NCBI GenBank assembly: GCA_001804315.1
Contig: MHFT01000024.1
Location: 13,610 to 77,609, forward strand
From: Omnitrophica bacterium RIFCSPLOWO2_12_FULL_50_11
GTDB taxonomy: Bacteria > Omnitrophota > Omnitrophia > Omnitrophales > Danuiimicrobiaceae
DNA length: 64,000 nt
Direction of reading: 5' to 3'
Both the position numbers and the translations under genes were made by a program. The notes beneath the pieces were generated by a model. That model searched no databases and was not told the origin of the DNA. It was given only the letters and a program-made list of their open reading frames with translations. Every line of letters starts with the position of its first letter. Within the stretch, counting starts at the first letter, position 1. This document shows, in pieces, positions 752-41,004 of this stretch.

Positions 752-3700
752 TTGACATCAGTATTAATTCAGCGAGCAGCCCTTATCACGGTTTCCTTTT
801 TCTTTACGAGCGGGCTAAATGTTTATCCGCAGCGGACTTCTCCGGCTGCTGAGACTGTAGCAGGCGTCAGCGGAGAGTCAAATCTCGCGCAGATCCAAAA
901 AGAGCTCGTACGACCCGGAACCCCTCTTGTTCGTCCGGATTTCAATCCCTATTTGATTACCGTCCCCGCGGAATACGGCAATATTGAAGAAGTCTACCAA
1001 GGCGCCCCGGACGCGCCTTTAATCGTTCACATCCAAAATGTCCACGCCAACTACAAAGCGCAGCTGAACATCAAAAATATCCTCGATCATTTAGTTGGGA
1101 AACACCAATTCTCACTCATCCAAATAGAAGGCGCAGTGGCCAAAGTAGATCCGGAAATTCTGAAACCTTCCTATTTGGAGGAAGCGAATTTGAAATTGGC
1201 TGATTTGTTGTTACGTGAGGGAAGGATCACCGGCGCCCACGCGTTTGCCATTGAAACGGACCGGCCTGTAGAGCTTTACGGGATTGAAGACTTCGGTCTT
1301 TACACCGAAAACTTGAAGATTTTTAAGGCGATTTACGCGCACCGTGAAGAGGTCAATGCTTACTTTTCCAATGCGCATCGTATGGTGAATCGGATTGGCC
1401 GGACATTGCTTACACCCGGAGCGCTCGACTTTACGAGGAAAAAAGAGTCGTTTTCGCGTGACGAAATCGGCCTACTCGATTATCTGGTGTATTTAAATCA
1501 AGTGGCCGAGAGAAGCGGACTCACTAAGCTCAGGGATTTAAAAGAAATGATCCGTTATCCAAATCTCGTTCGAATCTTACGGATTCACGAGCTTGAAGAG
1601 AGGCTGGACCGAACGGAACTAGAGAAGGAAGGAAAAAGGCTCAGAAGCGAATTTTCCAAAAAGCTTCCTCAAGCAGAAGCCGCACAGGAACTCCTTGGAC
1701 GCCTTGAGGCGCGGGAAAAAGGAGTGCGGCCGAGAGCATATTTCGTCGAGCTCACCAAACTTGCGGATCAAGCCGGAATCGATTTTGTCGGCTATCCTCA
1801 AATTCGACTCTTTGCCGAGTCTCTCATTTATCAGGATGAAATTGATCACCGCGGTGTTTTCCCCGAGCTCAAACGTTACGAAGCGGATCTCGAGAAAGCG
1901 CTTTTCAAAACCGAGGACGAGCAGGCGATTCTTGAAATCATTTCCTTTGTCAGTCTTCTCGAACAATTTTTCCGTCTCGAAATGAGCCGCGAGAAACTTG
2001 CGATCTATGTGCAGGATCGTGACAAGATGAAACCTTCTTGGATCCAAACGCGTTTGGCCGGGCTTGCGGAAGAGCAAAGCACTGCTTATACGCCGCTCGG
2101 AGCCGTTGAGCAATTGGATGCCTATATGAGTGAGCTCGAGGACTTTTATCGGCTTGTCTTGAAACGAGACGAATTTTTTATCGAAAAGATTCTCGCGAAA
2201 ATGAATGCGCTTGGCGAGAATAAGACCGTTGTCATTACCGGCGGGTTTCATAAGGATCCGCTCGTGGATGAATTTCGAAGGCAGGAAGTTTCCTATGTGG
2301 TGGTGAGTCCGGGCGTAGATATTACAGAGGGAAGCGAAAATTATGTGAAAGTGATGCTGGATGAAGACAGCGTCGCCGGTACTGTGTTTGCCGGCACCTT
2401 TGCGGTGGAAGTAGCAGATCTTGGCATCCCTGGACGAGAAGATGTGCTTTCAAACATCTTTGGTGCAGCGGATTTGCTTCAAGCTCACTTAGCTCCTACC
2501 GGCGTTCCCGAAGTTGAAATAACGAATAGGAGCAGAGAAAGATTTCGATCGCTGGTACAACGGTCGCGTGTTTGGTACGAACCTAGAAAAGTTGAGAGAA
2601 ACGATTATGCAGTCCGGGTGAGAGCCGAAGCGCGTTTCTTTAATGCAAAGGGCGAACCGATCCTACACGAAGTTGAAAGCAGGTTTGACAGAAGCGATCT
2701 TCGGTTTACGGTGCGGACCGTTCGCGAGAGAAAGATCTCGCCCGCAGAGCTGAGAAACATTGGAATTACTGAACCGCCAATGCCCGAGCCCATCCGCCGC
2801 GACGCCTTAACCGCCCTGAGCCGTGAAACTTTACGTGTTGATCGAGGAGTCCCTACAGCACAACGGAGTCAACTTACACCAGCGGAGCTTTCCACTTCTG
2901 AAAACTTCCCGGTCGGTACATTTGTATCTCCTAATGTGCCCGTTGTGCCGGAGGTGGAAGCGAGGTTGTTGGAACGCCTTTTTTCGCTAACGGCACTGGC
3001 AACGAAAGGGGTTGTTGACCAACTCCGAAGCGGCGGCGTATTGACGCTCGAAGGTGTGGAGCGTGCCAGTAGAGAAACCGGATTGGCTGGACCAATTACC
3101 CCAACCGATATTCAAAATATTGCTCAATTGAGCGAAGGAGAAAAGCGGCTTTTTATGGCTCTTGATGGTACCGCACCACAAGCGCCGCTCTTTTTGGTCC
3201 TCCCTGTGGATACGGTGAATCAATCGCACGCAAGCCGCGCGGCACTGCTGTCGCTTGTTGGAAGGATCCGGGCGAATGATCGCACGGCAGCGGCCGTTTA
3301 TGGAGTTAATGTTAAGAACTTTGCCTTGAGTTTGGGAATAAGTGCGGATGAGTTCGATAGAATTTTCTTTGTCGATCAAGACAAAGGTATTGAGCTTTCA
3401 ACTTTTGAAGGCGCTGTTGATCTCGTTGCGGCGCACGTCCAATCCAAACATGGCCTTTGGCTCAATCACTGGCTCGAGTCGGTGCCTGGAGCAACTCGGA
3501 TGTCAATCGATCAATTTATGAATCATCTGGCGATCTTGGTTCCAGCAGGCGAAATAGGAAATCGCTTGAGTGAAACAACTGCTCAAAGATGGCAAGAGGC
3601 TCTTCAGGTGATCGAGCTTGATCTTTCGGAGCCAGGGATTGTTCGCGATCAGGAACTCCAGCGAGCAGTCGGTGATTTTCTGGTTAAGGTGTTGGTGAAT

Positions 3701-3859
3701 CTTAGGAACGCGGAAGCCGTGGCCTTGCTTTATGAATTGAGCGAAGGCGCGATTAAGCAAGTAGCGCGCAACCTATGGCAGATTTCCGGCACTCCTACTG
3801 TGCTCAATCTCATCCTCAATCTTTACCGGGCTGAAGTCCAAATTCAAGCTGCGGCCTAA
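752..3859 (+). CDS. Large secreted/membrane-anchored protein whose N-terminal domain is paralogous to the giant ORF N-terminus (ChaN/TIKI/TraB-superfamily-like GxxH motifs); C-terminal 500 aa unknown
   Basis: 1035-aa ORF with a hydrophobic N-terminus (ALITVSFFFTSGLNVYP). IVHIQNVHANYKAQ...IEGA and VVITGGFHKDPLVDEFRRQEVSYVVVSPGV align with VVYLQDAHSNLGAQ...VEGG and ILVTGGFHAPGITTEFRKHKIPYVLISPKF of the giant ORF. The two-motif N-terminal xAH plus C-terminal GGFH pattern is reminiscent of the ChaN/TraB/TIKI family (family assignment is inference). Confidence 0.6.
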   Translation: MTSVLIQRAALITVSFFFTSGLNVYPQRTSPAAETVAGVSGESNLAQIQKELVRPGTPLVRPDFNPYLITVPAEYGNIEEVYQGAPDAPLIVHIQNVHANYKAQLNIKNILDHLVGKHQFSLIQIEGAVAKVDPEILKPSYLEEANLKLADLLLREGRITGAHAFAIETDRPVELYGIEDFGLYTENLKIFKAIYAHREEVNAYFSNAHRMVNRIGRTLLTPGALDFTRKKESFSRDEIGLLDYLVYLNQVAERSGLTKLRDLKEMIRYPNLVRILRIHELEERLDRTELEKEGKRLRSEFSKKLPQAEAAQELLGRLEAREKGVRPRAYFVELTKLADQAGIDFVGYPQIRLFAESLIYQDEIDHRGVFPELKRYEADLEKALFKTEDEQAILEIISFVSLLEQFFRLEMSREKLAIYVQDRDKMKPSWIQTRLAGLAEEQSTAYTPLGAVEQLDAYMSELEDFYRLVLKRDEFFIEKILAKMNALGENKTVVITGGFHKDPLVDEFRRQEVSYVVVSPGVDITEGSENYVKVMLDEDSVAGTVFAGTFAVEVADLGIPGREDVLSNIFGAADLLQAHLAPTGVPEVEITNRSRERFRSLVQRSRVWYEPRKVERNDYAVRVRAEARFFNAKGEPILHEVESRFDRSDLRFTVRTVRERKISPAELRNIGITEPPMPEPIRRDALTALSRETLRVDRGVPTAQRSQLTPAELSTSENFPVGTFVSPNVPVVPEVEARLLERLFSLTALATKGVVDQLRSGGVLTLEGVERASRETGLAGPITPTDIQNIAQLSEGEKRLFMALDGTAPQAPLFLVLPVDTVNQSHASRAALLSLVGRIRANDRTAAAVYGVNVKNFALSLGISADEFDRIFFVDQDKGIELSTFEGAVDLVAAHVQSKHGLWLNHWLESVPGATRMSIDQFMNHLAILVPAGEIGNRLSETTAQRWQEALQVIELDLSEPGIVRDQELQRAVGDFLVKVLVNLRNAEAVALLYELSEGAIKQVARNLWQISGTPTVLNLILNLYRAEVQIQAAA

Positions 3860-12012: not shown

Positions 12013-13722
12013 TTATGACGTTATCGCTCCTTTCGATGCGGACGACACCAGCCGGGCGTATTTTGCCATCACGCCGCTTGTGTAGCGCGGTTTGGGAGGC
12101 TTCCAAGTTTTGAAACGATCCGCGATTTCTTTTCGCGAGAGCGCTGCATCGAGCTTACGATTCGGGAGATCAAATGTGATTTGGTCTCCGTCTCGGAGAA
12201 TAGCAATCGGTCCGCGATCTACGGCTTCTGGCGCCACGTGGCCGGCCATTAAACCGTGCGTAGCGCCGGAAAAACGACCGTCGGTCACGAGCGCAACGGA
12301 GTCGCCAAGGCCCTCACCGACGATTGCTGCGGTGACACCGAGCATCTCTCGCATTCCAGGACCCCCTTTTGGTCCTTCGTATCTGATGACGACCACATCG
12401 CCCGGTTTAATTTTCTGATTTTTGACGGCATTAAATGCATCCTCTTCGCAATCAAAAACGCGTGCGGCTCCTGTATGAGTCAGGCGCTTCTCGCCGGCAA
12501 TTTTTAAAACACATCCTTCCGGTGCCAAATTTCCTTTCAGGATGACGAGGCCGCCCGATAGGTTGAGCGGATTCTTAAGCGGCCGAACTACCTCTTGGTT
12601 CGGTGTTTCTTTCGCTCGCACGATTTCGTCGCCAATTTTTCTTGTCGTTACGGTAAGTGGATCAAGATGAAGCAGCTTCGCATCCGCGAGGCGTTTCAGT
12701 AGAAGACAAATTCCGCCGGCTCGGTAAAGATCGTTTGCAACGAATCGGCCGCCCGGTTTTAAATCACCAATCAGGGGGGTTTTACGGCTGATGCGGTCAA
12801 AATCATCGATGGAGATGTCGACGCCTCGTTCGTGCGCGACCGCAAGGAGATGCAAAACCGCATTGGTGGAACCGCCGGTTGCACAAACCGCAGCAATCGC
12901 GTTTTCAATCGATTTTCGATTAATGATTGCACTTGGCCGGATGTCTTTCTTAAGTAGTTCGATCACAAGTTTGCCCGCTGCGTAGCACGCTTCGTCTTTT
13001 TTGGGGTCCATCGCGGGAATGTCATTGACGCCCATCGGTGAGATTCCCATCGCAGCAAATGCTGTGGACATCGTATTCGCCGTAAATTGACCGCCACATG
13101 CCCCCGCAGCAGGACAAGCGCGATCCTCGAGATTTTTTAATTGCTCCGCACTCATCTTCCCCGCAGCAAATTTGCCAACACCTTCGAATACATCTTGTAT
13201 CGTGACGTCGTGTCCCTCGAAAGTTCCTGGTGCGATCGAACCGCCGTAAATCATGAGACTCGGGGCGTCAACACGGCAAAGCGCCATCACGGTTCCGGGA
13301 ATCGTTTTGTCGCATCCTGAGATGGCAACGAGCGCGTCGAAATAGTGGCCGCGCGCGACGAGTTCGATTGAATCGGCAACCACTTCTCGGCTGACAAGAG
13401 AAGTTTTCATGCCCTCTGTGCCCATTGTGATGCCGTCGGAGATCGCAATCGTATTGAATTCCTGCGGCGTGCCGCCTGCGTCGCGCACACCCTGTTTTAC
13501 TTTTTCTGAGAGCCGGCGGAGATGGAAATTACAGGGCATGGTTTCGATCCAAGTGTTCGCAATGCCAACAATTGGACGACGAATCTCTTCATCACGAAGC
13601 CCCATCGACTTCATCATCGCCCGTGCCGGAGCGCGAGAAGGGCCTTCCGTAATGACTGAACTACGTTTATTTAACCGGTGTTTCATTTTGCGGCCTCGAG
13701 GAAAGGGGTAGTCCCCCACCAC
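12013..13722 (-). CDS. ilvD: Dihydroxy-acid dehydratase
   Basis: ALVAISGCDKTIPGTVMAL (Fe-S cluster Cys region), SLMIYGGSIAPG and full-length IlvD/EDD-family similarity. The probable start is MKHRLNK at 13686. Confidence 0.9.
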   Translation of the reverse strand: MVGDYPFPRGRKMKHRLNKRSSVITEGPSRAPARAMMKSMGLRDEEIRRPIVGIANTWIETMPCNFHLRRLSEKVKQGVRDAGGTPQEFNTIAISDGITMGTEGMKTSLVSREVVADSIELVARGHYFDALVAISGCDKTIPGTVMALCRVDAPSLMIYGGSIAPGTFEGHDVTIQDVFEGVGKFAAGKMSAEQLKNLEDRACPAAGACGGQFTANTMSTAFAAMGISPMGVNDIPAMDPKKDEACYAAGKLVIELLKKDIRPSAIINRKSIENAIAAVCATGGSTNAVLHLLAVAHERGVDISIDDFDRISRKTPLIGDLKPGGRFVANDLYRAGGICLLLKRLADAKLLHLDPLTVTTRKIGDEIVRAKETPNQEVVRPLKNPLNLSGGLVILKGNLAPEGCVLKIAGEKRLTHTGAARVFDCEEDAFNAVKNQKIKPGDVVVIRYEGPKGGPGMREMLGVTAAIVGEGLGDSVALVTDGRFSGATHGLMAGHVAPEAVDRGPIAILRDGDQITFDLPNRKLDAALSRKEIADRFKTWKPPKPRYTSGVMAKYARLVSSASKGAITS

Positions 13723-13907: not shown

Positions 13908-14321
13908 TTAAACCAAACGAACATGCGGAATGACATTTTTAGCCACTCGATGCAATCGGCGGTCCGAAGTCACAAAAATTTCAGAGCCCGAGAGAATCCC
14001 AGAAGCGAGCTGGACGGCATCCAAGGTTTTCAAGGCGTGTTGGCGGATGAGCTGAACGGCCTCATGTTCGAGATTTTCATTCCATACGGTCAGGAGAAAA
14101 TAGGCAAAATCCTTTTTAACCTCCACGCGAAGCCACTCAGCCTTTTCACGTGTCAACGTGTCCTCTCGCACGCACCGTTCAATGGTGGCATTCATTTCAA
14201 GCCACGTCACGGGAGAAACTACAATTTCCGCCGTTTTGGAGAGAAGCTTTTCAAAAGCCTCGCTTCCCGGTTCATCCGCATACTTTTTGAAAAGGGACGA
14301 TGTGTCAACAAATAGTCTCAC
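13908..14321 (-). CDS. vapC: PIN-domain toxin (VapC-like)
   Basis: MRLFVDTSSL..., acidic PIN residues and DAVQLASG...FVTSDRRL; 137 aa; 4-nt overlap with the upstream antitoxin gene. Confidence 0.75.
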   Translation of the reverse strand: MRLFVDTSSLFKKYADEPGSEAFEKLLSKTAEIVVSPVTWLEMNATIERCVREDTLTREKAEWLRVEVKKDFAYFLLTVWNENLEHEAVQLIRQHALKTLDAVQLASGILSGSEIFVTSDRRLHRVAKNVIPHVRLV

Positions 14322-14563
14322 CGTTCTTCGTTCCGCATCTGAGACACCGTTTGAGACAGCCCGGCACCTCTGACTTTAATCTTGGAAATTGGCCGCTTCC
14401 AGCCTGGGTGGGCTAGGTTCTCATTATGGGGAATCAAATCTGCAACTGGCGTACGCCGTTCCAGGATCACGATCCTCTCGCCCCGTTTGACCGCCTTAAT
14501 ATAACTGGAAAAACCGCGGGTCAACTGTCTAATCGTCACTTGAGTCATGTTCAAATCCTCCAA
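14318..14563 (-). CDS. Phd/YefM-family antitoxin paired with the PIN toxin
   Basis: MTQVTIRQLTRGFSSYIKAVKRGERIVILERRTPVADLIP is a typical Phd/YefM N-terminus, with tight translational coupling to vapC. Confidence 0.65.
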   Translation of the reverse strand: MEDLNMTQVTIRQLTRGFSSYIKAVKRGERIVILERRTPVADLIPHNENLAHPGWKRPISKIKVRGAGLSQTVSQMRNEER

Positions 14564-14729: not shown

Positions 14730-14758
14730 TTGAAAATGAACTTTTTTTAATGTATAAT
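14730..14758 (+). promoter_or_regulatory. Near-consensus sigma-70 promoter TTGAAA-17-TATAAT driving the giant ORF
   Basis: TTGAAA at 14730-14735, a 17-nt spacer, TATAAT at 14753-14758, and GGGAGG at 14784-14789 eight nt before the GTG start at 14798. Confidence 0.5.
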
Positions 14759-14797: not shown

Positions 14798-17700
14798 GTG
14801 GAAGCCAGCTTAAAAGGCCAGGTTTTACCACATAACGCTCGGTGCTTTAGAAAGTCATTTTGGAGAGCGACGGCTTGCGTCGTCTTATTTTCTTTCGCGA
14901 CTACAACTGTCGCTTGGTCCGATCCTGGCTTTGGTTCACTCGACCCCTCTTCCTCTTATTCATCTTTTGCACAACACTCCCTCATTAACCCATTGAGAAA
15001 TATTGATCTCCCAGAGCGTCTTGGGAAGATCGACGAACTGTTCCTCCCAGAGAGAGTCTCTCCCGATTCTCCGTTCGTCGTCTACCTCCAAGACGCTCAC
15101 TCTAACCTCGGGGCTCAGCGCCGCATTGCGGAGGTGGCGCGCGAGCTGAGCGACAAGCTCCAAATCGAGGCCATCCTTGTTGAAGGCGGCACAGGCGAAG
15201 CCGATCTTGCGGATCTAAGATCGTTTCCGGATCAAGAAGTTAAAGAGCGCGCAACCGAATTTTGGCTCAAAGAGGCGATGCTCAGTGGAATTGAACGGGA
15301 AGCGATTGTCGGTCCAAAAGTCTACCGCTTCTTTGGCGTGGAGGACGAAGCACTTTACGAAGCAGGGGGGCGTAATTTTATTGAGGCACAAACCCGCTCG
15401 CAGCCCTTTTTGACTTCGCTCAAACCGCTGGTTCAAGAAAACGGCGAAAATAGGAGGCAATACCTTAACAAGAAGCTCTACGAGTTCGAAGAACGGGTCT
15501 CTCAGTTTGAGGAAAAGAACGAACTGATTGCCCTTGTCAGTTTTCTTGCGAGTAAAGCGCGTAACCTTCACATCAACCGCTGGAAATATCTCGAAATCGA
15601 AAAGTTAATCGACCTCATTCTGCTTGAAATGGAGGGGGGAAATAGTGAGCGCTTTTTCGAAATTCAAGAAATGCTCGATTCAAGAAAACTTTTCCGCGAG
15701 TTGGATTCCTTGAAGTCGGAAGTTAAGGAACGGTTGTTTCAAACGGACGCCGAGCGCGCCATTGACGAAGAGCACCAAGCGCTAAAAGCGTTGCAAGCGA
15801 TCGTATCACTTAAAGCAACCCCCGACGATTTTGATTATTTCCGCAAGCGCCGCGAATTGATCAAGAAGTATGCGCAGAGGGCAAAATTAGATTCCGAAGC
15901 GCTTGCGTCTGCCGAGGCCTTTTACCGATCTGCGCAGGAACGCGATCGGAAAATATTCGAAAATATCCAGGCGATTCTCGGCGAAAACGGAATCAAACGC
16001 GCGATTTTAGTGACCGGTGGCTTCCACGCTCCCGGAATCACAACCGAATTCCGTAAGCACAAAATTCCATACGTTCTGATCTCGCCCAAATTTTCTGACG
16101 AGGACAATTACTCGAACTATCTCGCACGCGTTTCCGGCAAACGTGCGAGTCTCGACGAATTCAAATCGAAGCATTCTAACCGTCATCTGGAAGGAAGCCT
16201 TAACGGAGTCGTCATCCTGAGGCAACGATCCAAAGAGGTGCCGAAGGATCCCGGTCGGGATTCGTCTTCCAAGGAGCCTGCCCTGAGGACGGGATCCTTC
16301 GGGCCTTCGGCCCTCAGGATGACGTCCGAAAGAGGGCTTCCCAATGACGGCGCATCTCATTCCCACGCCGCGGCGCACGCTGTTTTCAACCGCGCCGAAC
16401 TCCGCGTCATTCGTGAGTCATTTGAGTGGTTAAGAGAGGGTGTAAGTTCGGCCGAGAGTGCCACTTCTCCTCAGACAGGTTTACGACGCGCCGAAACGCG
16501 AACAGAAAAACCAAAACTTCGATTTACTTTGCGAAGTTTAATCTTTTGGGTGATTTGCTATGCCTTAATGTTAGCGTTTATCAAAGCGGTTTTTGGCGAG
16601 GTAGAGTGGGGAGAAGCGCTAGGAGTAATGTTAGGTGTAGGTGTATTGGCTAGGCTTTTTCACTTAGAGTATGTGGATCTATTCGACCTGACTGAAGGGG
16701 CTGGCATTGAAAAGTCAATTGACCGCAGATTCGGATTGAAAAGGGAATCACGCGATCTCGATCCGAAAAAGGACGGAGCGGAAAGCGGTCGTGACCCAGA
16801 GGAACCACCGTCCGAAAACGCGGATCCGGACCGCCGCGCAGAGATGCGTAGAGAAATTCAGGTGGAGGCTACAACGGCGGAAGATGGACGGAAAAGCGGC
16901 GACATCGCAGGCGCGGTCGATTCTCTTCCACCTTCCACCCTCCAGCTTCCAGTTTCTTATCGCCAAGCGGAAGTGCGGGCAGAAAGGAACGCCGAAGACG
17001 GAAACAAGGAGCGGAATCAGATTCCGATTTTGGATTCGAGACAGGCCACTCGTTTGGAAAGACCGGGAAGAGCGACGCGAACGGCACTTTCAACTCCCGA
17101 TAGACGGTTTTCGACAAAGAAGAGGCGATCTTCTACCGCAGAGAGACGTTCTTCTACTGCTGAGAAACGGTTGGGAAGGGGCCCAACGCCCTCCACAACA
17201 GCACGAAACTGGCCTCGAAGATCTTCGATCAATGTCCCTACTTCTGTGACGGTATATGAATCAGCCCTTTTTTTTGGCTTGGTAGGATTACCTTTGCTCA
17301 TTTCAAATCTCCTTGAGGATCATTTTGTGGGAACGGAAGGAATGGAAAGCACTGTATCAAGGCTGCCACAAGATGTCAAGGCGCCTTTTCAAAAATCGCA
17401 CCGCGCTGAAATCCGAAGTCGATCCGGCAGGGAGGACGGTTCGGAAATCAAAGCGACAAGCTCAGAGGAAGGACAAAACATCCGATCCGTCCGTTCGGAT
17501 AAAATGCAATGGCTTACAGTTAGCATTTTGCTTCCAGCCGTCACATTGGGCTTAGGGATCGGGGCAACTTTTCTGACCAAACGTTTCGAATCGCTTCCCG
17601 TTTCGATTTTATTCGTGAGGGGGATGCAATATATTTTGGGCACATTCGCAGACATAGGAATGAGTGCTGCTGCGAATTATGTTGGTCAGTGGCGTAAATT

Positions 17701-20700
17701 TAGGAGTAAGGCCAGCTGGGCGAGGGCAGTCCGTTTTGGCTTAATTATCCAAGTCGGTTTCTCGATCTGGTTTTTCGTCAAGCCGCGGCTTAGGATTCGA
17801 CTGGACCACTACGGGTCTGTCATGATGGTTGCTGCCGATACGGTGATTAGTTTGTTTACCCATCGTTTGTTGCTTCATTTGCTATATAGATCCGAGAGGT
17901 TATCTAAAGACGAGATTCGCGAAAAGATGAAAAACACATTTTGGCCTTCTTATGGGATGTTGGCGGGCGTGTGGGGCATTTTCAATTTAGGCATTTATGC
18001 TATTCCAAAAGATTGGGCCTTCGTTATTCCTATTATTTCATCGGTCGTGGCTTTTGTGAACAAAGTTATTTTGTCAGCTTATCTATATCGATCATCTTCC
18101 CGGACACTGATGATGAAGTTTGGGGGGACTTTCGGCTTGGTAGCTCCGATCATAAGCTTTGTTGCGATGGGTTCAGTCATCGGGCTTGACTTTTCATTTC
18201 GGCACGTGATTTTTGGGGGATTGAGTGGATGGTTAGTCGGAAGTGCGTTCGTTTACTTTGCAAAAAAATACTGGGGCTCAATCCAAACTGAAGGTGACGC
18301 GCTTCAAACGGGACCGGCATCTACAGGCAATGTCAATGATTTCCGGCCTGAGGTGCGGGGCAATGAGAAATTGAGTCGCACGCGGTGGGTCCGGCCATCT
18401 TGGATTGATTCGACCAGCTTGTTTTCACCGGCGGAAAGAAAACTCATTCGGGAACGCGGTCAATTGCTCAAGTTCGTGTACCCGCGCTTGAGCGAGAATG
18501 CGAAAAAAGTATTACTTTACCCTTCCTTCTTGCCCGTCTTTATGGGCGTCAAGCCGGCGTACCTGCGTATTACAGACCTTATTACTGGCCGCAAAGAACC
18601 GGATCCTATGATCCTTGCGAGAGAATTGAAAGATATTCCCAAGGCTTGGGATCAACTTGGGATAACGTTCAACGACATCAGAGCGATGTTAGTATTCGAT
18701 GTTTTTGATCAACTCAAGGCGCACATGAAACTTTTAAAAGACTTTGGTGTCCTGCCGCGCTATCCAAACGTCGACCTGATGAGCGAAGAGTGGAAAAGCT
18801 ATCAACCGAGCAAGTGGCAGGCGTTATCGGAAGAATTGGAATTGTTCATTGACGACTTAGACGACAATGTTGAGGTTAGTCAGAGTGCTGGGCATGTTCT
18901 TAACGGCATTGTCTTAGGTTATCCGGTGGCGGAAGTTCAGGCTCTAGGCGAATACATAACGGGCTTTTCGGTGAGTGTAACGCGGCTGTCGACAGAGTTT
19001 GAAGGCATTGAGCTCTTCGTTCGACTAGGAGAAAAGGGAGAAATTGCAGACGAAACGCATCGCTATCTCGCGCGGATGACCGATGCGCTTTATTATGCCT
19101 ATTCACTCCTACAGGAAAATGAGGACTTCGCGAGCATAGCTCAGGAACTCAACCTTCCCCCTAGAGTTCTTTCAGCCGAAGCTCCTGAGTCGATTGTCAG
19201 CCGTGGCGAACTTAGGCAAAGCGATTTTTTCAGGTCTGAGGTGCGGGGAAAAGAAAACGCTCAAGATTTACAATTGTATATTCGGCGTGCTCGCCATCCA
19301 GAGGTTCAAAGCGGAGAAACGAGTGATCAGGCGCCGGATTCTGCCGCCGTCAGCCTGTTGCCAATACCGCGAATTTCTTCTTTGAGCTCAGACCGCGTTT
19401 CTCCAAGTTCAGTCCGAGTATCACGGAGGTCCTTGGAGAGTTTTGACACGGCGTCTTCAAGGCGAGATGCTTTACCGTTGAGGACGTTGATTCGGAGTTC
19501 GATCGTATCTAGCCTTCGGCTGTTGCCGTGGACAGTTACCTCGAGCCGTTCCATCCTCGTATCGAGACCTGACTGGCCCTCAGCGAGGGTATCAAATTTC
19601 TTGTCCAATGCTTCCAGAAGTGTGCCCACTTCCGTGACTGAATATGAATCAGCCATTTTCTTTGGCTTGGTAGGATTACCTTTGCTCATTTCAAATCTCC
19701 TTGAGGATCAATTTGTGGGAACGGCAGGAATGGAAAGCAAGGTATCAGAGCGGCCACAAGATGTCAAGGTGCCTTTTGATGCCGGGCGCAAGACCGGAAT
19801 TGCGAACCCCAAAATCTTCTCCTCTCCCCTGTCGGGGGAGAGGATTTCCGCCAAAGGACGCGGCGGATCCGCCGCGCTGTATGGCGGAAAGGTGAGGGGG
19901 ACGAGTGAAAATAACTTGAACATCCACCCTCACCCAACCCTCTCCCTCCAATGGAGAGAGAGGGGAAAAGACTACAGCTACGGTCTTGTGACTTTTGATG
20001 CCGCCCGGCGTGCGGAGACCCGCGATCGAGTGCGGAATCCGGAGTTCAGGGTGCGGAGTGGACTTAAGTTCGGGAGTTCGCCCGTTCCGCACTCCGCACT
20101 CCGCATTTCCAACTCAAATCGGCGGGCCGAAGCGCGGGCAGAGAGCGATGGAGATCAACTTGTCAAACGATTCACAAGGTTAAGGGGGATGAATCTTTTG
20201 AGAGCTTTACCTGAATTAAACGGCGCGGTTCGACGGAAAGATTTGCCGGCTCGCACTTTGGAGAAGCTGAAAGAACAGCGCCGGATTAGGTATGTTCCTT
20301 ATGTACGCGGAGCGCTCAAAAGGCTCGCACGGAATTTAAGGAGCGAATTTCCAAAGGGGCGTGAGCTCATGAAAGCAGTTGCGGATGCATCAGGTGATCC
20401 TGAACTCTATGACCGTTCGGATGCCCTTCCGTTGCGAATTCTCCAGCAAATCGATCAACGAAAAGCGTGGGAGAGGGTGGCCTCTAACGACAACGTCGCA
20501 GAGCTTCTCCTCCGCGCGAAAGAAGCATTTGATCGGTATATGAGCACTGATGACGCATGGCTTTCAGAACATCTGCCTGAACTCAAGGATAAAAGGGCCG
20601 CCTACTTTTCGGCTGAATTTGCGGTTCCGCCGCTCCCGATATACACCGGCGGAATGGGGGTGCTGGCGGCTGATATCGTGGCGAGCGCGAGTGATCTGAG

Positions 20701-26700: not shown

Positions 26701-29700
26701 AGAATGGAAAGGTAAGAGTATTTTCGAAATTGGATTCGAAGCCAGTCTAATTCCTCGGGAGTTTAATTTGTTAGTGGATGCCGCGGTTAAGGGATTTAGC
26801 AATCTCAACGAGGCCGAACGAAATCAAGTGAAAAAGGTTCTTCGGAAGATTTTCGAAAAATTGGGCTTGCTCGAAACGGAAAAGCAAGAGGAGCGGCGCC
26901 GATTCCTGAGTCAAATCAGCGCGCTCATGATAAAGCTCAAAGCGCGGGGAAAGTTAGACAAATTAAAGTCAACGTTTCAAAAGAAATACTTGGACGAGAC
27001 ATCGTTCAAATTGGAGCGTGAGGTCAAAGTGTCAGGGCTTCAAACCGGTGATCAGGTACAGGAAGCAGCGGCGGAAATATCCGATGAAGAGCCTCTGGGC
27101 GCTTTGAGAAAATTGCTTGCTAAAAAACCCCGTGGGATTGAGGAAGCATATGCCTTGTCTATTTCACGAGGCGCATCTTTAGAAGAGGTTCGGAGGACAC
27201 TCAAAGAAGCTGGCTATGAGATGACGCAATGGAGACGCGACGGGTTGCTCGGCCTCTTTCGATTTAAACGAAATGTGTGGTTGAAAGTGCAAGAGCCCCG
27301 CCGGGCCGAGGTGCGGCACGAGCTGGTGCAGAGTGTGGAATTCGGAGTGCGAAGCAGACGCGAACGAGACGACTCGATCATTCCGTATTCCGCACTCTCC
27401 ATTCCGCACTCGGAAACACGGGCTGAGATGCGGGGACAATTGGAAGAAGATTGGAAAATAGCACGTTCTGCTGTGTGGTTTTTTTTGAGGAGAGGGGTTT
27501 ATTTTAAGCAGGACATCGAAGATGCTTTTCAGGATATCCATCTTGCGTTTGCGGAGGAGAGGCAGAAGGGAAAACCCTTATCAGAACTGGAGCTGAGAAA
27601 GATTGCTCTGGCCGCCCTTTCAAAACATGTGAGGGATTATCATAAGTACAAGCGTGTGGTTAGAGGGTTTCAAGCTGCATATAGATCGCTCGTCACAAAG
27701 CGCCGCGGCCCACGTCCTATGCTTGATGATGTCGATCTCTTGATACCTGAGGTAGGGGAAGAGACATTTGGGGACAGGCTTAGATCTCATTTCAGAAGGC
27801 GAGGGTGGTCCCAGCGACGAGGAGCGCGTGAATTAGGATTTTCGTACGGCTCCATTAAACCGTGGATATCAGGTAAGATTCCAAGCCCATTCTTTGTGAA
27901 ACGGCTTGCGACCGCACTGGACACGACGGTAAGTGAGTTGATGATAGGAATACCTAGGGAAGAGTTGCTCGCCATCAGGATTGAAGATGAAGAAAGTGGC
28001 GAATACAGAAAAATCTTGGGGTTGAAGGTCAAAGTTTTGAGATATGAAAAAGGATGGACAAAAAGCAGGCTTGCTCGCGAGGTGGGTATCAAGGATAACA
28101 CCATTATCAGACTGGAGGCAGGCGAACCTACGTTTCCCTATCGGTACATTGGAAAACTTGCCGAAACGCTGGGTACGACGATAGGCGATCTTATTGCAGG
28201 AATGCCTGACGAAAAAATAATGGCTATTCGTGTTTTTGACGAGAAAAGCGAGGAGCATCGTGAACTCTTTGGGCTCAAATTAAGAGTCCTCAGATATAGG
28301 CGAAGATTATCTCAGACCGGTTTCCAGGGCCAGAGTAGCACCTCCGCATGGGAAAGTGGGAAATGGTTCCCCTATCCCAGAAGCATGAAAATCATTGCGC
28401 GCAACTTAAAAACAACTGTGAGCGAACTTTTAGCCGGCATACCTGAAGAGAAGTTAATGAGCATGCGGGTCCGAGACGAGAAAAGCCGGGAAGCAAAACA
28501 AATTCTTGGATTAAAGATCAAAATTTTTAGATACAAACGGGGTTGGACCTTAACCGAACTTGCTCAAGAAATGCACGTGCATGTTGATACGGCTTCAGAT
28601 TGGGAAGCCGGACTGCACTTCCCTGCGATACGGCATTTCAAACAGCTAGCAGAACGACTGAATTCTACGGTGAGCCATCTTCTGGTGGGTTTGCCCGCAG
28701 AGGAGATAAAAACAAGATTAAAAAATGGCAATGACCCGGACTATGCCGACCTATTCAATCTCATGATCCGGGTTGTAAGATACGAGAACGGTTGGTCATC
28801 GGGCAAGCTCGGCGCTGAAGTTGGGATTCCTCGGGTAACCATCGATGGATGGTCATGGAGTCGAGCAGTTCCCGCCCCTAACAATTGGAAAAAATTGACT
28901 ACTGGAAAAGGGCACGTTCTTTTCGGTGACTACCTTCCTCCGTCACGGCCGAAACCCACAGAGCTTGATGAGACAGAACGTAAAGTTCATGAACTGTATC
29001 AACAACTAGGTCGATACAGTTCTGTCGCCAGAGCAATGGGATGGCAAGGAGCAGCAGGCGGCGTGAGGGCCCGGCACATATACCTGCGGTCTCTTCGGAA
29101 ATTGGGGGCTCAGAGCCGCGCTGAGGTGCGGAACGAACTGGTGCGGAATGCGGAATTCGGAGTGCGGAGTGGACGTCAACTCGAAGACTTGATCATTCCG
29201 CATTCCGCCCTCCCCATTCTGTACTCGGAACCACGGCCTGAACTGCGGATGGGGCTGGAAGAGATCGCGATCTATGAGGAAGACGTGGATCTCGAAGCGT
29301 ATCAGCGCGTGATGCGTTCTGCCGAGGTCCGTTTCTTAACGCGTGAGGAGGAAAAGATCCTTTTTCGTGCCCTTCATGCTCGAAATCTAAAAGGAGAAGA
29401 GCGCAGGACTCTCTTTGACTTTCTAGTCTTGAAATATCTTCCTAGGATTAAACGCGTGATCCGTAAACTCGTACGCGGTGAGGGGCGAGACAAGGACAAT
29501 ATGTATCAGGACGGTTCTTTGGGGTTAATGGAAGCAGTCTGTCGTTTTGATTACCGTCTCGGGACGAGGTTTGGTACATTTGCCGACTGGTGGATATGGG
29601 GCAAAATTCTAATCGGTTTGAATGACTTAGCCACTGGAAAGTTACCGTCTCAGGAGCGGGAACTCGTCCCCGCAATCTTGAGCTCTCAACAGGAATTAAC

Positions 29701-32700
29701 ACAGCTTTTCAAGCGTGAACCCACCATGGAGGAATTGGCCAAAGCGCTAGGGGAAGAGGAAAAAACGGTGATCCGCATCCTTTCCTTCTTCTCACGGGCA
29801 AAGTCCTTAGATGCCCCAGCAGGGAACGGTGAATTAAACCGCTATCAATTCCGCTCGGATCCAAAAGCGGAAACTCCGGAGGCGATCGCGGTTCGTGAGG
29901 AAGAACACCGCGAGATAGTCCCAGAGATTTCAAGAAGGCTAGCCCTTCTTTCCTCTTACCAGCAGCTCGTCATCAAACTGCGGTTTGGAATTGGCACGCA
30001 AAAAGAGGGCGGTTATACACTCGACGAGATTGGAACAATGCTGGGGGTCACAAGAGAGAACATCCGTCAGATCGAAGATCGTGCAATCAAAAATATGCGC
30101 AGCAACACTATTTCAGACGCCAAGACTCGTCCCGTATCCACTGAACATGGTGATGTTTACCTTGTGGAAGTCGTCGGCATAAAGCCGGATCATCCTGTTT
30201 TTGAGGACATGCGGCTCAAGCCACTTATCGAGATAAAAGAGCTTTACGAAAGGGGCTTTTTTGCCAATTTCATTCCGGCACAAAACTTGACGATGGGCAG
30301 GGTCAGAAATGTTAAGCCTCGTGTCGGCTACCGGAGACGCGTAGCGGCAACGGCCCGAGCAGCCGCTCACCGTGCTGAGGCGCGCAGTGGAAGCGTGAGG
30401 GAGTATGCGACGTGGGATCACTTCCATAGCTTGATTCATGTCCTCGCGATAGATAGCGAGGAAAAGAATCGGCTGGAAGCGTATAAGCGATTGAGAGAGC
30501 TAGCATTGTTTCAACCGTTCCACTTTGGCCTTGCTTTGGTGCGGCATGTCGGAGGTGAAATAGCTTCTTATGCTAAATCCATTTTGCTGGAGGTTGCGTG
30601 GGAAAACCCAGAGATCATGACTGGACCCATTGTGAGCTCACTTGAAGATCCGAGTCGGAATCCGCATGCTGAAGAACTTCTCGGCCAGTGGATTGACCTC
30701 ATCATCAAAAAGAAAGATCGAAACAAACTCAGTATTGTTGCCCGGCCTCTGATCGGCATCTTAGCTCTTGAGATAGCCCGCCCTGCTGCCGAAAGATTGA
30801 TTCAAAAAATTGCTCTTTTTGATCTCGGTGTAATTGTGAATCGATTCATGGGGGCACTCAAAGATCCCGCGAGGCGGGCGATCGTCGGGCACCTCCTTGT
30901 AGTCATTAGCCGTTATTCTGCTGGCGCAGCAAAGTTCGTCACCGAAACTGTCATTGAAAATCTTTATGACAATGAAATCGCCGAATACCTTATAGAAGTA
31001 CTTCTTGAGATTTCCAAGGATGCGGGCGAAAAGACGGTAAAACATATTTTGTGGTTATTAATGGATGTTTTGCATTTTGAGGATTACCTGAAGCGGGTTC
31101 GTTTTGTTCCGTTCAAGGAACGGCTAAGAGAAAATAAGGGAGATTTCCGTCGAAACGCAGCCGCGGTTTTATCGAGAATGCTGGTGACATATCCGGTCGA
31201 AACAGTGCACATTGTAGTCGGCCATGCTTTGAATCATGACGTCCGGCAGTACGCCGACGAAATCCTCGCTGAAATCGAGGATAAACAACCCCAGATTCTT
31301 ACTGATTCCTATGTGGCAGCTCAGGGCCGAATGAGTCCAAATGAATTTGTGGAAAGCGAGTTGATTCGTCTCGCTGCATCACATCGAGGGCCTATCCTCA
31401 ACTCGCTCATCAAATCGCTTAAGAGACAATCAAAAGCTCCGGCCTTAGTTTCGCTTCTGATAAAGATGGCGCGGTCTAACTCTGAGCTTTCAGGTTTCAT
31501 TCAAGAGCGCCTCAAGTCTGCGATGTCTGAGGTGCCGACGCATCGGAACCTCGATCGCTTCGGTCAACAAATTCTTGCCCAAATCCAGTCCCGCAATGAA
31601 GTGCGATTGGGATTAAATTTGGCCAAGGAGAGAAAAGTACTGCTCTCGGGAAATGCCAGCCGTGCGGAGGTTATTCAAAATGATGAAAACGGGCACAGCC
31701 CGATATTGAGGAATGACGATCGGACGGCTGACGCCAGGCTTGATGTAAACAAGGTGGTCGCCAGTTTGACGCACACGCCGAAAACCGGCCAATTCGAAGA
31801 CTCGACAAAGGTTTTGATACGGAATCGGAGTGATGCGGCTCATGGAGCAGGAGACGATTTAGAAAGTGACTTCGCTATGCTCGGTAGCAATAAGAGGAGG
31901 AGAAGTCCATTCGGTTCCAGCCGGATCTCGGGCAATGAAACCTTCTTCTTGAAGAATGTCCTTGAGCGTTCCCATTCTGGAACTTTCCTCAAGGAACAGC
32001 CGAACCGCTTCCATAAGCCTGCGCCGCGCATCGTCCACCGTATCTCCGCAGCTGGCAACGGACAATTCTGGGCAGACACTGACAAACGTCGGCCCCTCTC
32101 TAAAAATCAAGGAAGTGAATTCAATCTTTCTCATGGCATTCAAACTATAACACAGAACCGGGATGCCGTAAAGCAGCCCTCTTACCGCTCTGCAGTGCGT
32201 GAAAAATTCAGGGGAGAGGCGAGAGAGGAGAGGGAAGAGAAAAAGCGCTTACCTCTTACCGCTTCTCTCTCGCCTCTCACCACTCACCTCTCCCCTGATT
32301 CTTCCCGCCCCGCGGCACGCAAACGAGTGCGAAGCGGACATGAACTCGAAGACTCGATCATTCCGCATTCCAGACTTCCCAATCCGCACTCGGAAACACC
32401 GGCTGACGCGCGGGATCTCGTAGTTGCGCATGACGAATTGCCAGTGACGAAAGGTAGAAGACCTTGGCAGTACGAACGCGCGGATCTAAGGCACCGAGCG
32501 CGCTCTAGAGGTGTGAGTGCTTTTCGCGGCGGCGGCCCTGCCAATCGAGAAAGACAATTCCGAGAATTATTACAAGCAGGATCACAGCAAGAAACACAAC
32601 ATTCGCTGTTGCTCCATCCATTTTTGTTTCCTCTCGTCAGGATTGATCCAGAGAATGAAGGCAAAAGCAACAAGATAAATTATAACCCCGGCCACCAGAA

Positions 32701-35700
32701 GAAACAAGACAGGTCCGACTTGTTGGGCGCATCCGACTTCATACAGTTGTCATCGCGAGGCCAGCATCCCAAGAATGGGCTGAAGCAATACGATGCCTCC
32801 GTCATTACGAGGAAGCGTAGGGGCAATGACGAAGTAATCTCGGATGCGAGATTACTTCGTCATCCCTTGGGGTTGCTTCCTCGCAATGACGGTCAGGATG
32901 CAATTGCTTCGTCAACGCCTGGTCCGCTGCCTCGCGATAACGTTGGCATTGCTGCATCGAGCGGGATACGCGCCGCGGTGCAGAGTGGACAGGAACTGGA
33001 AGACTTGATCATTCCGCATTCCGCACTCCCCATTCCGCACTTGGAAACACGGCCTGAGGTGCGGAGCGGGGACAAATCACGAGGGGATGCGAGCGCTCCT
33101 CCTGACCGTGTCAAACAATGGGAAGAGAATATCGGTGCCGTGAAAAGGATGTTGAGCAAGTTTTTTCAGGAAGGCAATGACCTAAATTATGCCTTGCTTT
33201 TGTTTGGAAACATCCTCGTGAACGATCCCGTTAGAATCGATTACATGGAGAAATTGATGAATGCTTTGAAGAAACAAAAGGGGCCTCGTAGAGACAAAAA
33301 CGCAAGACACGGCGTAGAGCTTACGCCTGACGATCTTAGAGATTTGCTCGATTGGGTAATCGGAGACGTCGCCTATTTAAGCTCTCCGCCTAATAGGAAG
33401 GACGACGGACCTGTTATGTGGATGTGGGTTCCATACAGAGACCTACCCGAAGAACTCATAACCGAAATTGTGAAATATCGAACGCCTAAAAAGAATTTTG
33501 ATGATGCGGCTGACGCATGGAGAGCATATCAGGCGCAGGGTGATAAGAAGCTAATCGGATTTAAGTCATTCTATGATAAGCACTTTAAAAAAAGAGGGGC
33601 GATGGCGTCTGGCGATCAGGCTTTTGATTCGTATTCGTTTCATTTTTTACCTACGAGAAAGCATGATGATTTGAAACTAGGGATTGACACTGACTGGGCC
33701 GGCAGAGGATTGGGCAGAGGATTGGTTGCGTTCAGGGACGTACCTCGAGGTCGAAAACTTGTTGTAAATCGGCTCCGGCAATCTGAACAGGTTTATGGAA
33801 TGTCTCAACATTTGTTTTACATTGAATTAGAGCACGTCAAAAATCGGCTTATTGTTCACACCCACCAACACGGCGGTAGTCGGACGAGTCAATTGAGGAC
33901 TTCCGATCGTGAGTTGTATGATTACTTGAAACATGTACCGGATAAAGCCTTCGCTTTGTTAATAGACCGACTGGATGAGGTACTTGCAGCTTTAGGATGG
34001 TCGGCAGCCGATCAAATCCAGGATTTTGAGATTGTCTCAGCCAGCAAGGTCGCTTATGAATGGTCCACGGTCTCGGCCTCAACGGTTATGACAGCTTATA
34101 TGGATTTTCCACAGCGCCTTGGATTTCATATGGTAGAACGTAAGCCCAATGAGATCCGGAATGCGCCAGGCGACCAAGCCATGTGGAGAGAAAGCGTGTG
34201 GTACTGGAGCCGGCCGCTTGCGGATATGAAGAAACCTCCGAAAGTTCAGATCGAGACGCCGTCTTCTTTCCGTCCGGAAGTGAGAATCCTGGAGACGCGG
34301 GCTGAGGTGCGGGAAACAAAAGTAAGAAGCACGAAGCTGGAAGCAGGAGCGCAAAAGTCTCTCGCTTCAGGCCTCGCGTTTCACGCCGGCGGCAAAGCCG
34401 CCTCCCGCTCTGAAATGCGGATAAATCCGAGGAGCACTGAGGAATTGCGCGAACAGTTGATGACTCTTGTAAGGGAGATCGTCATTCTGCTTGATCTTCT
34501 CACGGTAGATCCCCGTCGGGAGAACCGGAAGGAACTTGAAACCGAGATTACGGAGCTGAGAAGGCAGCTCAGTGAACAAAAAGAGTTTGTGAACGAAGAT
34601 CAACATCAAATCTTTGACAAGCTTGTGGGAGAAGTTAAATCGCTCATTGATTTAGTATCGGCTTCCAAGCTGCCTCTTTCTACTCAATTGATACGAGAAC
34701 ATACTCAGCGTATTTACAGTAACATCCAAGAGCTGGAATTTAAGCCTACGGGGGAACAAAAAGATGCAATAAGTGCGGAAACAGAACGCTTCGAGCTCGC
34801 GAAGTTGATTAGAGCTAAGGATGTCGAGGGTATTGCTGACATGCTTTCGAGAAGCGACGAGGTGCCAATAAAGGTAGATGCGATCAGGGCACTGGGTCTA
34901 TTGAAGGCCAGTCAATATGCAGATTTGATCGTTCCATACTTAACCTTTTTCACACCACCCTTCGGCGAGGGTGTGCGGCTGACTGCAATTACTGCATTAA
35001 GAAATTTAAATGCAAAACAATATCTAACTGAGATTGCGAAGAAATTCACAGATCCCACACTAAGCGTTCGCAGTAGGGCAGCCGGAGTGATTGGGGCATT
35101 CGGGGATCCAACATACATCCCCCAACTGAAGGAACTATTGAATGACAAATCCGCCGCGGTGCGGCTTGCAGCGGCAAAAGCTTTGCAGAAATTCGGAGTG
35201 GACATTCCTGAAGAATACCGCTCCGAAGCGCGGAGCAATGATGATGTCTTTATGAGGATCGCAGCTTCTTTGCCAGAGGAGTGGCGGGAAAAAATTCAAG
35301 CAGTGCAGACAAAACCAGCTAACAGGGATGTTTTCCCCTCGTGGATACAAGCGCTGAATGAAGCGGAAGCGACGCGCCTACACTCCATTCTAACGGATCG
35401 CGTGCCAGTAGATGTAATTGAGTCCTTTTTCCTGAACAGCCCGCACTTTCTTGCAAGCGATCCCGATCAGCGTCATCAAGTGGCAGTTTCGATTGCAGAG
35501 ACGCTAGAGGATGTACGTCGGCTTTTAAGATCTTGGATTGAAGAGCTGGATCGCGACCCGCATGCGCGACGTCCTGCAGCGATCCCTGCGCGCCAGATGA
35601 CCACCCCTGCTGAGACAAGAGGTGTCCGGCCGCAAGAAGAACGAGAAGAGTGGGTATCAGAGGAGGAAGCTGCCAGACGCGCGCGCTTCATTGAGTGGGC

Positions 35701-40503: not shown

Positions 40504-41004
40504 CTATTTTCGTTCGTGAAATTCTAGCTTACCCCGTAGGTCGCTGAGGAATCCCATATCGGCCGCAAACCTTCTGAGCAACGCGGAATATTTATGTTTA
40601 TTCGGTATTAACAGCCGGCGTAACTTTCCTTGCTTTTTTAAGTATTCAACCAGACAGTGAAAATCTCCGTCGCCTGTCACAATAACGGCTTGATCGTAAT
40701 GGGGCTGCTCGATCATGGCGTGCAGGACGAGCTCTGCGTCAACGTTTCCTTTCACGCGTCCTTCCGATAAAGCAAGAGTAGGTTTGAAGATGACGACGTA
40801 GCCGTACTGTTGGAGCGAGGCGTACAAACTCTGCTGCTCGGCCACAAAACCAATGAATAAAAACGCCTTGACGACGCTGTATTTGTCCTCGAGGTATTTG
40901 CGAAACCGTTTAAAATCTAACTTCCACCCTTGTTCTCGGACTGACAAATTAAGATTCCGACTGTCTATAAACGCGTAATTTTTTTGATGTAGTTTCATCG
41001 TCAC
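40504..41004 (-). CDS. NYN-domain (LabA-like) protein, putative RNase
   Basis: YAFIDSRNL ... KGNVDAELVLHAM ... AVIVTGDGDFHCLV match the NYN/PIN-like acidic motifs. Confidence 0.7.
   Translation of the reverse strand: MTMKLHQKNYAFIDSRNLNLSVREQGWKLDFKRFRKYLEDKYSVVKAFLFIGFVAEQQSLYASLQQYGYVVIFKPTLALSEGRVKGNVDAELVLHAMIEQPHYDQAVIVTGDGDFHCLVEYLKKQGKLRRLLIPNKHKYSALLRRFAADMGFLSDLRGKLEFHERK

Follow-up and report, generated by a model that had tools for sequence, protein, structure and literature searches.

We analysed a 64,000-nucleotide (nt) window, positions 13,610 to 77,609 of contig MHFT01000024.1 from Omnitrophica bacterium RIFCSPLOWO2_12_FULL_50_11, in which a giant open reading frame (ORF) on the plus strand contains a duplicated segment of about 170 nt. 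On the minus strand, each copy of this segment carries the 5' end of a small coiled-coil gene. The genes flanking the giant ORF were identical or near-identical to Omnitrophica bacterium RIFCSPLOWO2_12_FULL_50_11 proteins. Both small genes lie wholly within the giant ORF and on the opposite strand. The features of the two small genes and of their host frame are as follows.

14730 to 14758, plus strand: sigma-70-like promoter of the giant ORF, TTGAAA-17-TATAAT, 11 of 12 consensus positions, followed by the Shine-Dalgarno (SD) sequence GGGAGGAAG and a GTG start at 14798
14798 to 37675, plus strand: giant ORF, 7625 codons, 22,878 nt, no stop; a chain of whole-protein modules
17017 to 17301, minus strand: small gene copy 1, 94 amino acids, short subtype; orthologue P0036 at 56% identity
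17223 to 17389, no strand assigned: repeat copy 1, comprising promoter, 5' untranslated region (UTR), SD sequence, ATG and first 25 codons
17309 to 17314, minus strand: copy 1 SD sequence AAGGAG, 7 nt ahead of the ATG
17351 to 17379, minus strand: copy 1 promoter, -35 TTGACA at 17379-17374, 17-nt spacer, TG-extended -10 TACAGT at 17356-17351; 10 of 12 consensus positions
19327 to 19689, minus strand: small gene copy 2, 120 amino acids, canonical long subtype; motifs VHGNSRRLD and RLEDAVSKLSKDL
19611 to 19777, no strand assigned: repeat copy 2, 89% identical to copy 1
19697 to 19702, minus strand: copy 2 SD sequence AAGGAG, 7-nt spacer to the ATG, laid out as in copy 1
19739 to 19767, minus strand: copy 2 promoter, -35 TTGACA at 19767-19762, 17-nt spacer, -10 TACCTT at 19744-19739; 9 of 12 consensus positions

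A repeat search of the window recovered the two copies as a direct repeat of 167 nt with an offset of 2388 nt and differences at 19 of 167 positions. This agrees with the original prediction, made from the sequence of this stretch, of a module of about 168 nt and 90% identity. Of the intervals given there, the first (17225-17392) was right, while the second (19625-19792) was placed about 13 nt too high. A 47-nt core (17276-17322, equal to 19664-19710) has no mismatch between the copies; it is the only such pair in the window, and none of 100 shuffles produced a match. The predicted minus-strand signals, consisting of a TTGACA element, a -10-like hexamer, an SD sequence followed by ATG, and 25 shared codons, were present in both copies, with a leader of about 40 nt between the -10 element and the SD sequence. 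The start codons at 17301 (copy 1) and 19689 (copy 2) and the ORF lengths of 94 and 120 amino acids were likewise recovered, and the N-terminus common to both ORFs reads MSKGNPTKPKK(R/M)ADSY(T/S)VTEVGTL. On the plus strand, the giant frame reads the module as VPTSVT(V/E)YESA(L/I)FFGLVGLPLLISNLLED, which is hydrophobic as had been claimed. The antisense signals had also been called the strongest in the giant gene region; this holds within the body of the ORF, but the giant ORF's own promoter matches the consensus at least as well.

We used profile and homologue searches to place the small proteins. Among 1.84 billion cluster representatives, only 28 clusters matched the family profile at E<=1e-10, so the family is both small and rare, and a search of viral contigs found no relatives. 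The 120-amino-acid protein had 20 full-length homologues of 102-151 amino acids at 48-65% identity, whose N- and C-termini both aligned. Expression signals were counted in 12 homologue loci from different metagenomes. Eleven of the 12 had a TTGACA-17-TAnnnT promoter 43-55 nt ahead of the ATG, and an SD sequence (AGGAG or GAGGAG) was found 6-9 nt before the ATG in nearly all, with only AGCAG at locus L014, even though the surrounding sequence could not be aligned. Copy 1 grouped with P0036 and copy 2 carried the family motifs, which defines two subtypes.

An AlphaFold2 model built from the family alignment showed a disordered basic tail (residues 1-17) followed by one continuous helix (residues 18-118), with a mean predicted local distance difference test score of 84.6. 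The model is a single soluble helix with no transmembrane segment. An XhlA-like (PF10779) or phasin-like identity had been proposed for these proteins and was not borne out, as there was no Pfam, NCBIfam or PDB match to support it and no C-terminal membrane segment. DUF1664 (PF07889) scored 24.0 bits against the small protein, below its gathering cut-off of 34.6. Taken together, the comparative data show that the small ORFs are genuine genes with their own promoter, SD sequence, and conserved start and stop. The full-length homologues, the conserved SD and promoter elements, and the substitution patterns described next thus lend support to the earlier view that these are antisense, self-promoted small coiled-coil genes.

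Across the family, differences per small-frame codon position 1, 2 and 3 were 0.337, 0.225 and 0.595, a pattern that is normal for coding in the small frame and therefore abnormal for the opposite frame, in which position 2 changes more than position 1. Amino-acid identity was 58.5% in the small frame versus 50.1% in the giant frame, and the mean BLOSUM62 score was 2.91 versus 1.95. Codon usage favoured the antisense frame at 16958-17130 and 19298-19560, and was negative for the giant frame over the cassettes. The differences between the two window copies follow the same pattern. None fell in the -35 hexamer or the SD sequence, and upstream of the ATG all eight altered a giant-frame residue, several of them radically, with T>K, R>E, L>R, E>A, H>Q and A>V among them. 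Within the coding part, 7 of 11 differences fell at wobble positions shared by the two strands. The others were conservative for the small protein (I/L, T/S, R/M), whereas their effects on the giant frame were not (I/R, V/E). The comparison of substitution patterns between copies and among relatives, which had been suggested as a check, thus shows selection at the protein level for the small frame alone.

These data bear most directly on the possibility of true two-strand coding, in which the giant-frame peptide, including the hydrophobic FFGLVGLPLLISNLL, would itself be functional, for instance as a membrane segment, and the identity of the module would arise from constraint on both proteins. 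Such a peptide could explain why the giant frame is open in 12 of 12 members and why the copies share a 47-nt core without a mismatch. It would also fit the finding that, in all lineages examined, the Lys-rich N-terminus reads as a hydrophobic stretch in antisense (for example VFRFSLFGLSFFISSLLL at L005 and VFWVSFFFITTLL at L011). However, hydrophobicity is automatic when AAR-rich codons are read in reverse, and the hydrophobic stretch recurs in other lineages because a Lys-rich N-terminus is being read in that direction. The lower identity of the giant frame, its atypical codon-position pattern, its negative codon usage, and the uniformly non-synonymous upstream differences between copies all argue against a second constrained protein, and we consider this explanation unlikely. 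Since the giant-frame amino-acid sequence over the module is not conserved, the segment probably acts as a read-through spacer rather than as a second functional protein. Of the original prediction of dual coding, the part that stands is that the giant frame is kept free of stops; conservation of its amino acids over the module was not found.

We next consider how the two frames lie relative to each other. In all 12 long-type homologue loci examined, as in both window copies, the small gene is antisense inside a giant open frame. Openness was assessed at 13 related loci from groundwater and other metagenomes, plus one metagenome-assembled genome from GTDB. At all analysable loci the opposite-strand frame was open across the small gene; the open stretches measured 1118 to >5478 codons or spanned the entire contig. 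The wobble positions of the two strands had been predicted to coincide, and this was verified in the window, where position 17299 is codon position 3 on both strands, and in 12 of 12 family members tested, where third codon position faces third codon position. This wobble-on-wobble antisense frame contained no stop in any of the 12 genes, whereas the two alternative antisense frames contained 40 and 45.

With the strands in this register, the giant frame would acquire a stop wherever a Tyr codon directly follows a T- or C-ending codon, or a codon for His or Gln follows a T-ending one. When synonymous codons were resampled from family usage, the probability that the frame would be open was 0.05-0.5 per gene, giving a product of ~1e-10 that can be taken as an order of magnitude only, since the family members are not fully independent phylogenetically. 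The estimate is conservative in that the codon pool is already biased and optimistic in that the genes are related.

The copy 1 orthologue P0036, from a low-GC relative (locus L026, 331-605), provides a natural control. This gene has its own TTGACA-17-TAGGAT promoter and lies convergent to a giant ORF of 9447 amino acids, 15 nt past its stop, and the same antisense frame there contains stops. This arrangement hints that giant ORFs may grow when loss of a stop lets them read into a convergent neighbour. Since the nested layout recurs in all relatives whose small gene lies inside a giant frame, selection appears to act on both DNA strands, with the patterns above indicating that the opposite (giant) strand is selected only for staying open.

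The giant ORF itself encodes complete DUF3417 and phosphorylase domains (a glucan phosphorylase), XRE helix-turn-helix repeats, two sigma-70 factors, HEAT repeats and membrane segments, with all sense modules in one frame. We counted 24 instances of a junction motif, R-[APS]-E-[VLIMTA]-R, in the giant ORF, as against six in the rest of the 64-kb window over all six frames. Four of its sites bound the modules that hold the small genes.

16391 to 37066 (span), plus strand: 27 junction sites at whole-protein module boundaries, for example at 18344, 19232, 26270, 27302, 29117, 33050 and 34298
16835 to 16849, plus strand: junction RAEMR, giant-upstream boundary of the copy 1 module
17402 to 17416, plus strand: junction RAEIR, giant-downstream boundary of the copy 1 module
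19232 to 19246, plus strand: junction RSEVR, 81 nt beyond the copy 2 stop
20009 to 20023, plus strand: junction RAETR, giant-downstream boundary of the copy 2 module

Each small gene, together with its promoter, fills exactly one inter-junction module (16835..17402 and 19232..20009). Among the homologue loci, 5 of 12 had a junction 12-21 nt past the small-gene stop, and 10 of 12 had one 83-230 nt ahead of the ATG. The junction was also the commonest pentamer in each related giant ORF, in the lineage-specific form RAEVR, RAELR/RSELR or AARLA. Because the Arg codons vary (CGN and AGR), the junction looks like a peptide-level signal, and a cleavage site is one candidate. No peptidase or protease domain was detected in the giant ORF at Pfam E<0.01. 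Literature searches for RAEVR, RSEVR or RAELR junctions, or for nested genes, in Omnitrophota giant ORFs returned nothing relevant.

Two other roles for the junction were rejected. It does not serve as an SD sequence for internal restarts, as sense modules showed no enrichment of an in-frame SD and start codon after junctions (8 of 32 sites versus ~5.7 expected), and it does not encode a -1 frame TGA, which occurs in only about half of the instances. Since the sense modules lack this enrichment and the giant ORF's own signals lie at its 5' end, only the reverse cassettes carry canonical initiation signals within the giant ORF. Elsewhere in the window, a 1035-amino-acid ORF with no Pfam domain (752-3859, plus strand) contains one R-x-E-x-R motif, at 2621. 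Related giant ORFs, on the minus strand at L015 (1-15639) and L014 (6796-18933), carry complete in-frame cytoplasmic enzymes, including RmlD (2e-44) and S-adenosylmethionine-dependent methyltransferases, so a mosaic, polyprotein-like make-up is general in the group.

The giant ORF might nevertheless not be a real translation unit over this region, which would then be a row of separate genes with an open frame due to chance or to a gene-calling artefact. Over the cassettes, the giant frame translates into a Ser/Arg-rich sequence of non-coding character, as expected from such a row, and one public assembly splits the ORF near 19860-19890. That split is at locus L003 (ANAN16-1 scaffold_928), where gene callers divide the giant ORF into products of 1695 and 2040 amino acids because of a 10-N scaffold gap. 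The gap, at 19443-19452, falls exactly at the site of a hairpin and palindrome listed below, and since the break is a run of 10 N, we ruled it out as a sequence variant. A row of separate genes would also not account for 7625 codons without a stop and with all sense modules in one frame, for giant frames that remain open in every related locus despite about 60% third-position divergence, or for the appearance of stops where the small gene sits outside the giant ORF. The lack of SD and start-codon enrichment after junctions points the same way, and we regard this explanation as very unlikely.

We give little credence to the idea that the small ORFs are spurious, that is, a by-product of the composition of a giant-protein segment whose promoter- and SD-like strings are coincidental. 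Real genes often have long ORFs on the strand opposite them, and Pfam and NCBIfam assign no function to the family. Against this, start and stop are conserved in homologues, the SD and promoter keep a fixed distance to the gene in otherwise unconserved sequence, substitutions favour the small frame, and an orthologue, P0036, stands free outside a giant ORF.

Just as implausible is that the 167-nt repeat is a mobile or non-coding element with chance promoter-like signals, of the type of miniature inverted-repeat transposable elements (MITEs) or repetitive extragenic palindromic (REP) sequences: although palindromic REP-like elements do occur inside the same giant ORF, the repeat has only two copies in the 64-kb window, both exactly at the 5' ends of paralogous genes, lacks flanking inverted repeats, and gave no matches in exact and pattern searches of 185,579 species genomes, including an exact search for the module core, or in viral contigs. 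Its occurrence elsewhere as a non-coding repeat had been named as a result that would speak against the small genes, and no such copy was found in either the window or those genomes. An Rfam scan of the whole window gave no match, a tRNA/tmRNA scan found none, and the 5' UTRs of both copies folded no better than shuffled sequences (z -0.1 and -0.4). An invertible cassette was ruled out separately, as no inverted repeats flank the repeat and the small ORF has its own stop.

The close match of the two 5' ends requires its own account, as identity falls abruptly at both ends of the 167-nt tract. The copy 1 N-terminus, MSKGNPTKPKKRADSY, matches that of copy 2 and not that of its own orthologue P0036 (MKPNKHAKNMY). 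The simplest account is recent gene conversion between old paralogues 2.4 kb apart, which homogenised the 167-nt 5' ends.

Collectively, we consider it highly probable that the duplicated segments are the 5' ends of two paralogous, self-promoted small coiled-coil genes that lie reversed inside a giant modular ORF, whose frame is kept open across them as a spacer, and that the two 5' ends were converted. Under this model, each small gene would be expressed from its own sigma-70-type promoter through a 5' UTR of about 40 nt, a strong SD sequence and an ATG. The giant ORF passes each cassette in the wobble-on-wobble register described above. Selection on small-gene codon choice would remove triplets that read as stops on the other strand, and it would be because of this purging that the giant frame stays open. 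The giant ORF could then be translated through the cassettes as a spacer, which may belong to a polyprotein that is cleaved at the junction peptides. Head-on antisense transcription from the nested promoters may modulate, interfere with or partition the giant transcript downstream of each cassette. As for the small proteins, we infer that they form rod-like coiled-coil oligomers acting with giant-ORF products, because nearly all examined members lie inside a giant ORF and the sole exception is immediately adjacent to one.

Several points weigh against this model and call for caution. Copy 1 lacks HGNSRR, the family's most conserved motif, and has a single orthologue among those found, P0036, while the copy 2 -10 element, TACCTT, is weak. 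In profile searches against Pfam, NCBIfam and PDB, the small proteins matched nothing more specific than generic coiled coils, with scores that stayed below family thresholds. Gene conversion and a partial duplication of the 5' segment would leave the same trace. The phylogenetic dependence noted above limits the joint openness estimate. Finally, it is stop avoidance that suggests translation of the giant frame across the cassettes.

A broader proposal, which we put forward as tentative and rate as possible rather than probable, is that giant ORFs of this Omnitrophota group are stop-less operons. They would be translated from a single start as polyproteins in which lineage-specific junction pentapeptides join whole proteins, with the ribosome reading through reverse genes and REP-like elements that have been recoded to be stop-free, and with nested head-on promoters acting as internal valves on a 23-kb transcript.

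Other elements lie in and around the giant ORF, including a second type of reverse cassette and the palindromic site mentioned above.

19821 to 19846 and 19845 to 19890, no strand assigned: G+C-rich hairpin and perfect palindrome (CGCGGCGGATCCGCCGCG), respectively, in the copy 2 module; the giant ORF reads through in frame
31613 to 31843, minus strand: hicA; Pfam HicA_toxin PF07927, 3.3e-07, 30.7 bits against a cut-off of 27 (31616-31843)
31859 to 32143, minus strand: hicB-like ORF of 94 amino acids that adjoins hicA; no Pfam match
32172 to 32144, minus strand: promoter-like site of the hicBA cassette

The hicBA cassette is also nested antisense in the giant ORF, in a register that differs from that of the coiled-coil genes, and the giant frame is open there too. 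A hicBA cassette was likewise found in antisense orientation at L005, and the two giant-gene preprints make no mention of HicA or of fusions. Palindromic REP/MITE-like elements were identified at 27281-27443, 29096-29258, 32261-32423 and 32912-33074, with a weaker one at ~20009-20137. They have minimum free energies of -45 to -71 kcal/mol over 163 nt, each lies between two junction motifs, and the giant ORF reads them in frame (...NAEFGVRSG..ELEDLIIPHSALPIPHSE...). Between 32000 and 32800, none of the six frames has coding-like codon usage, yet the giant frame is without a stop. A Phd/YefM-PIN toxin-antitoxin pair (13908-14563, minus strand) lies divergent from the giant-ORF promoter, with a TTGACA-17-TATGAT site at 14597-14569, and an NYN ribonuclease gene (40504-41004) lies downstream of the giant ORF.

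Embedded antisense genes have reportedly been described in E. coli O157:H7, namely nog1, laoB, pop and asa. The small genes resemble these in that each ORF lies wholly inside an opposite-strand ORF and has its own promoter and ribosome-binding site. Unlike the E. coli cases, the nested gene here is the well-conserved partner, with 48-65% identity across lineages, the host frame is 22.9 kb long and constrained only to stay open, and the arrangement, register and signals are kept in every relative found nested in a giant ORF. Convincing, conserved antisense nested genes in bacteria are rare and disputed, and the present case combines a conserved promoter, SD sequence, start, stop and register with a natural control.

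Integron cassette arrays occasionally contain reverse-oriented, self-promoted cassettes, such as the toxin-antitoxin cassettes of Vibrio superintegrons. The giant ORF is similar in that it has unrelated modules in a row, a recurrent junction, and a few reversed modules with their own promoter, including a toxin-antitoxin pair. In contrast to integron arrays, its junction is a 15-nt peptide-level motif rather than an attC hairpin, and the modules form one uninterrupted frame; no integrase was seen, although no search aimed at one was made. Viral-type polyproteins offer another parallel, with one start, one frame, several complete proteins and a short recurrent boundary peptide, but the giant ORF lacks a protease domain at the Pfam threshold given above, and polyproteins normally have no reverse-strand genes. 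The small proteins, in turn, are small and largely helical with a heptad pattern, as are XhlA, phasins and DUF1664 proteins, from which they differ in having no XhlA or phasin match, only a sub-threshold DUF1664 score, and no transmembrane segment.

Giant ORFs are already known in Omnitrophota, and post-translational cleavage of their products has been suspected (Seymour et al. 2023, PMC10066038; West-Roberts et al. 2023, bioRxiv 10.1101/2023.11.21.568195). The ORFs described so far are dominated by adhesion, carbohydrate-binding and peptidase domains, and antisense or nested genes come up neither in these papers, of which Seymour et al. was checked in its giant-ORF passages, nor in a further giant-gene preprint. 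The giant ORF shares with the known examples a length of more than 20 kb, an N-terminal membrane anchor and many unannotated stretches. It differs from them in being built of whole cytoplasmic proteins, namely a glucan phosphorylase, sigma factors and XRE regulators, in having a junction pentapeptide that recurs, and in carrying reverse autonomous genes.

Relative to the Omnitrophota papers searched, two aspects are new: a conserved, self-promoted gene family that lies antisense in giant ORFs while the host strand avoids stops, and the junction-delimited, whole-protein make-up of this giant-ORF class. At least one class of Omnitrophota giant ORFs thus consists of whole-protein modules strung together through defined junction peptides, with autonomous reverse genes among them. 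The question of giant-ORF cleavage becomes testable through predicted cleavage sites and predicted spacer peptides, such as VPTSVTEYESAIFFGLVGLPLLISNLLEDQFVGTAGMESK. If the broader proposal is true, stop-less polyprotein operons with reverse cassettes would represent an undescribed mode of bacterial gene organisation and expression.

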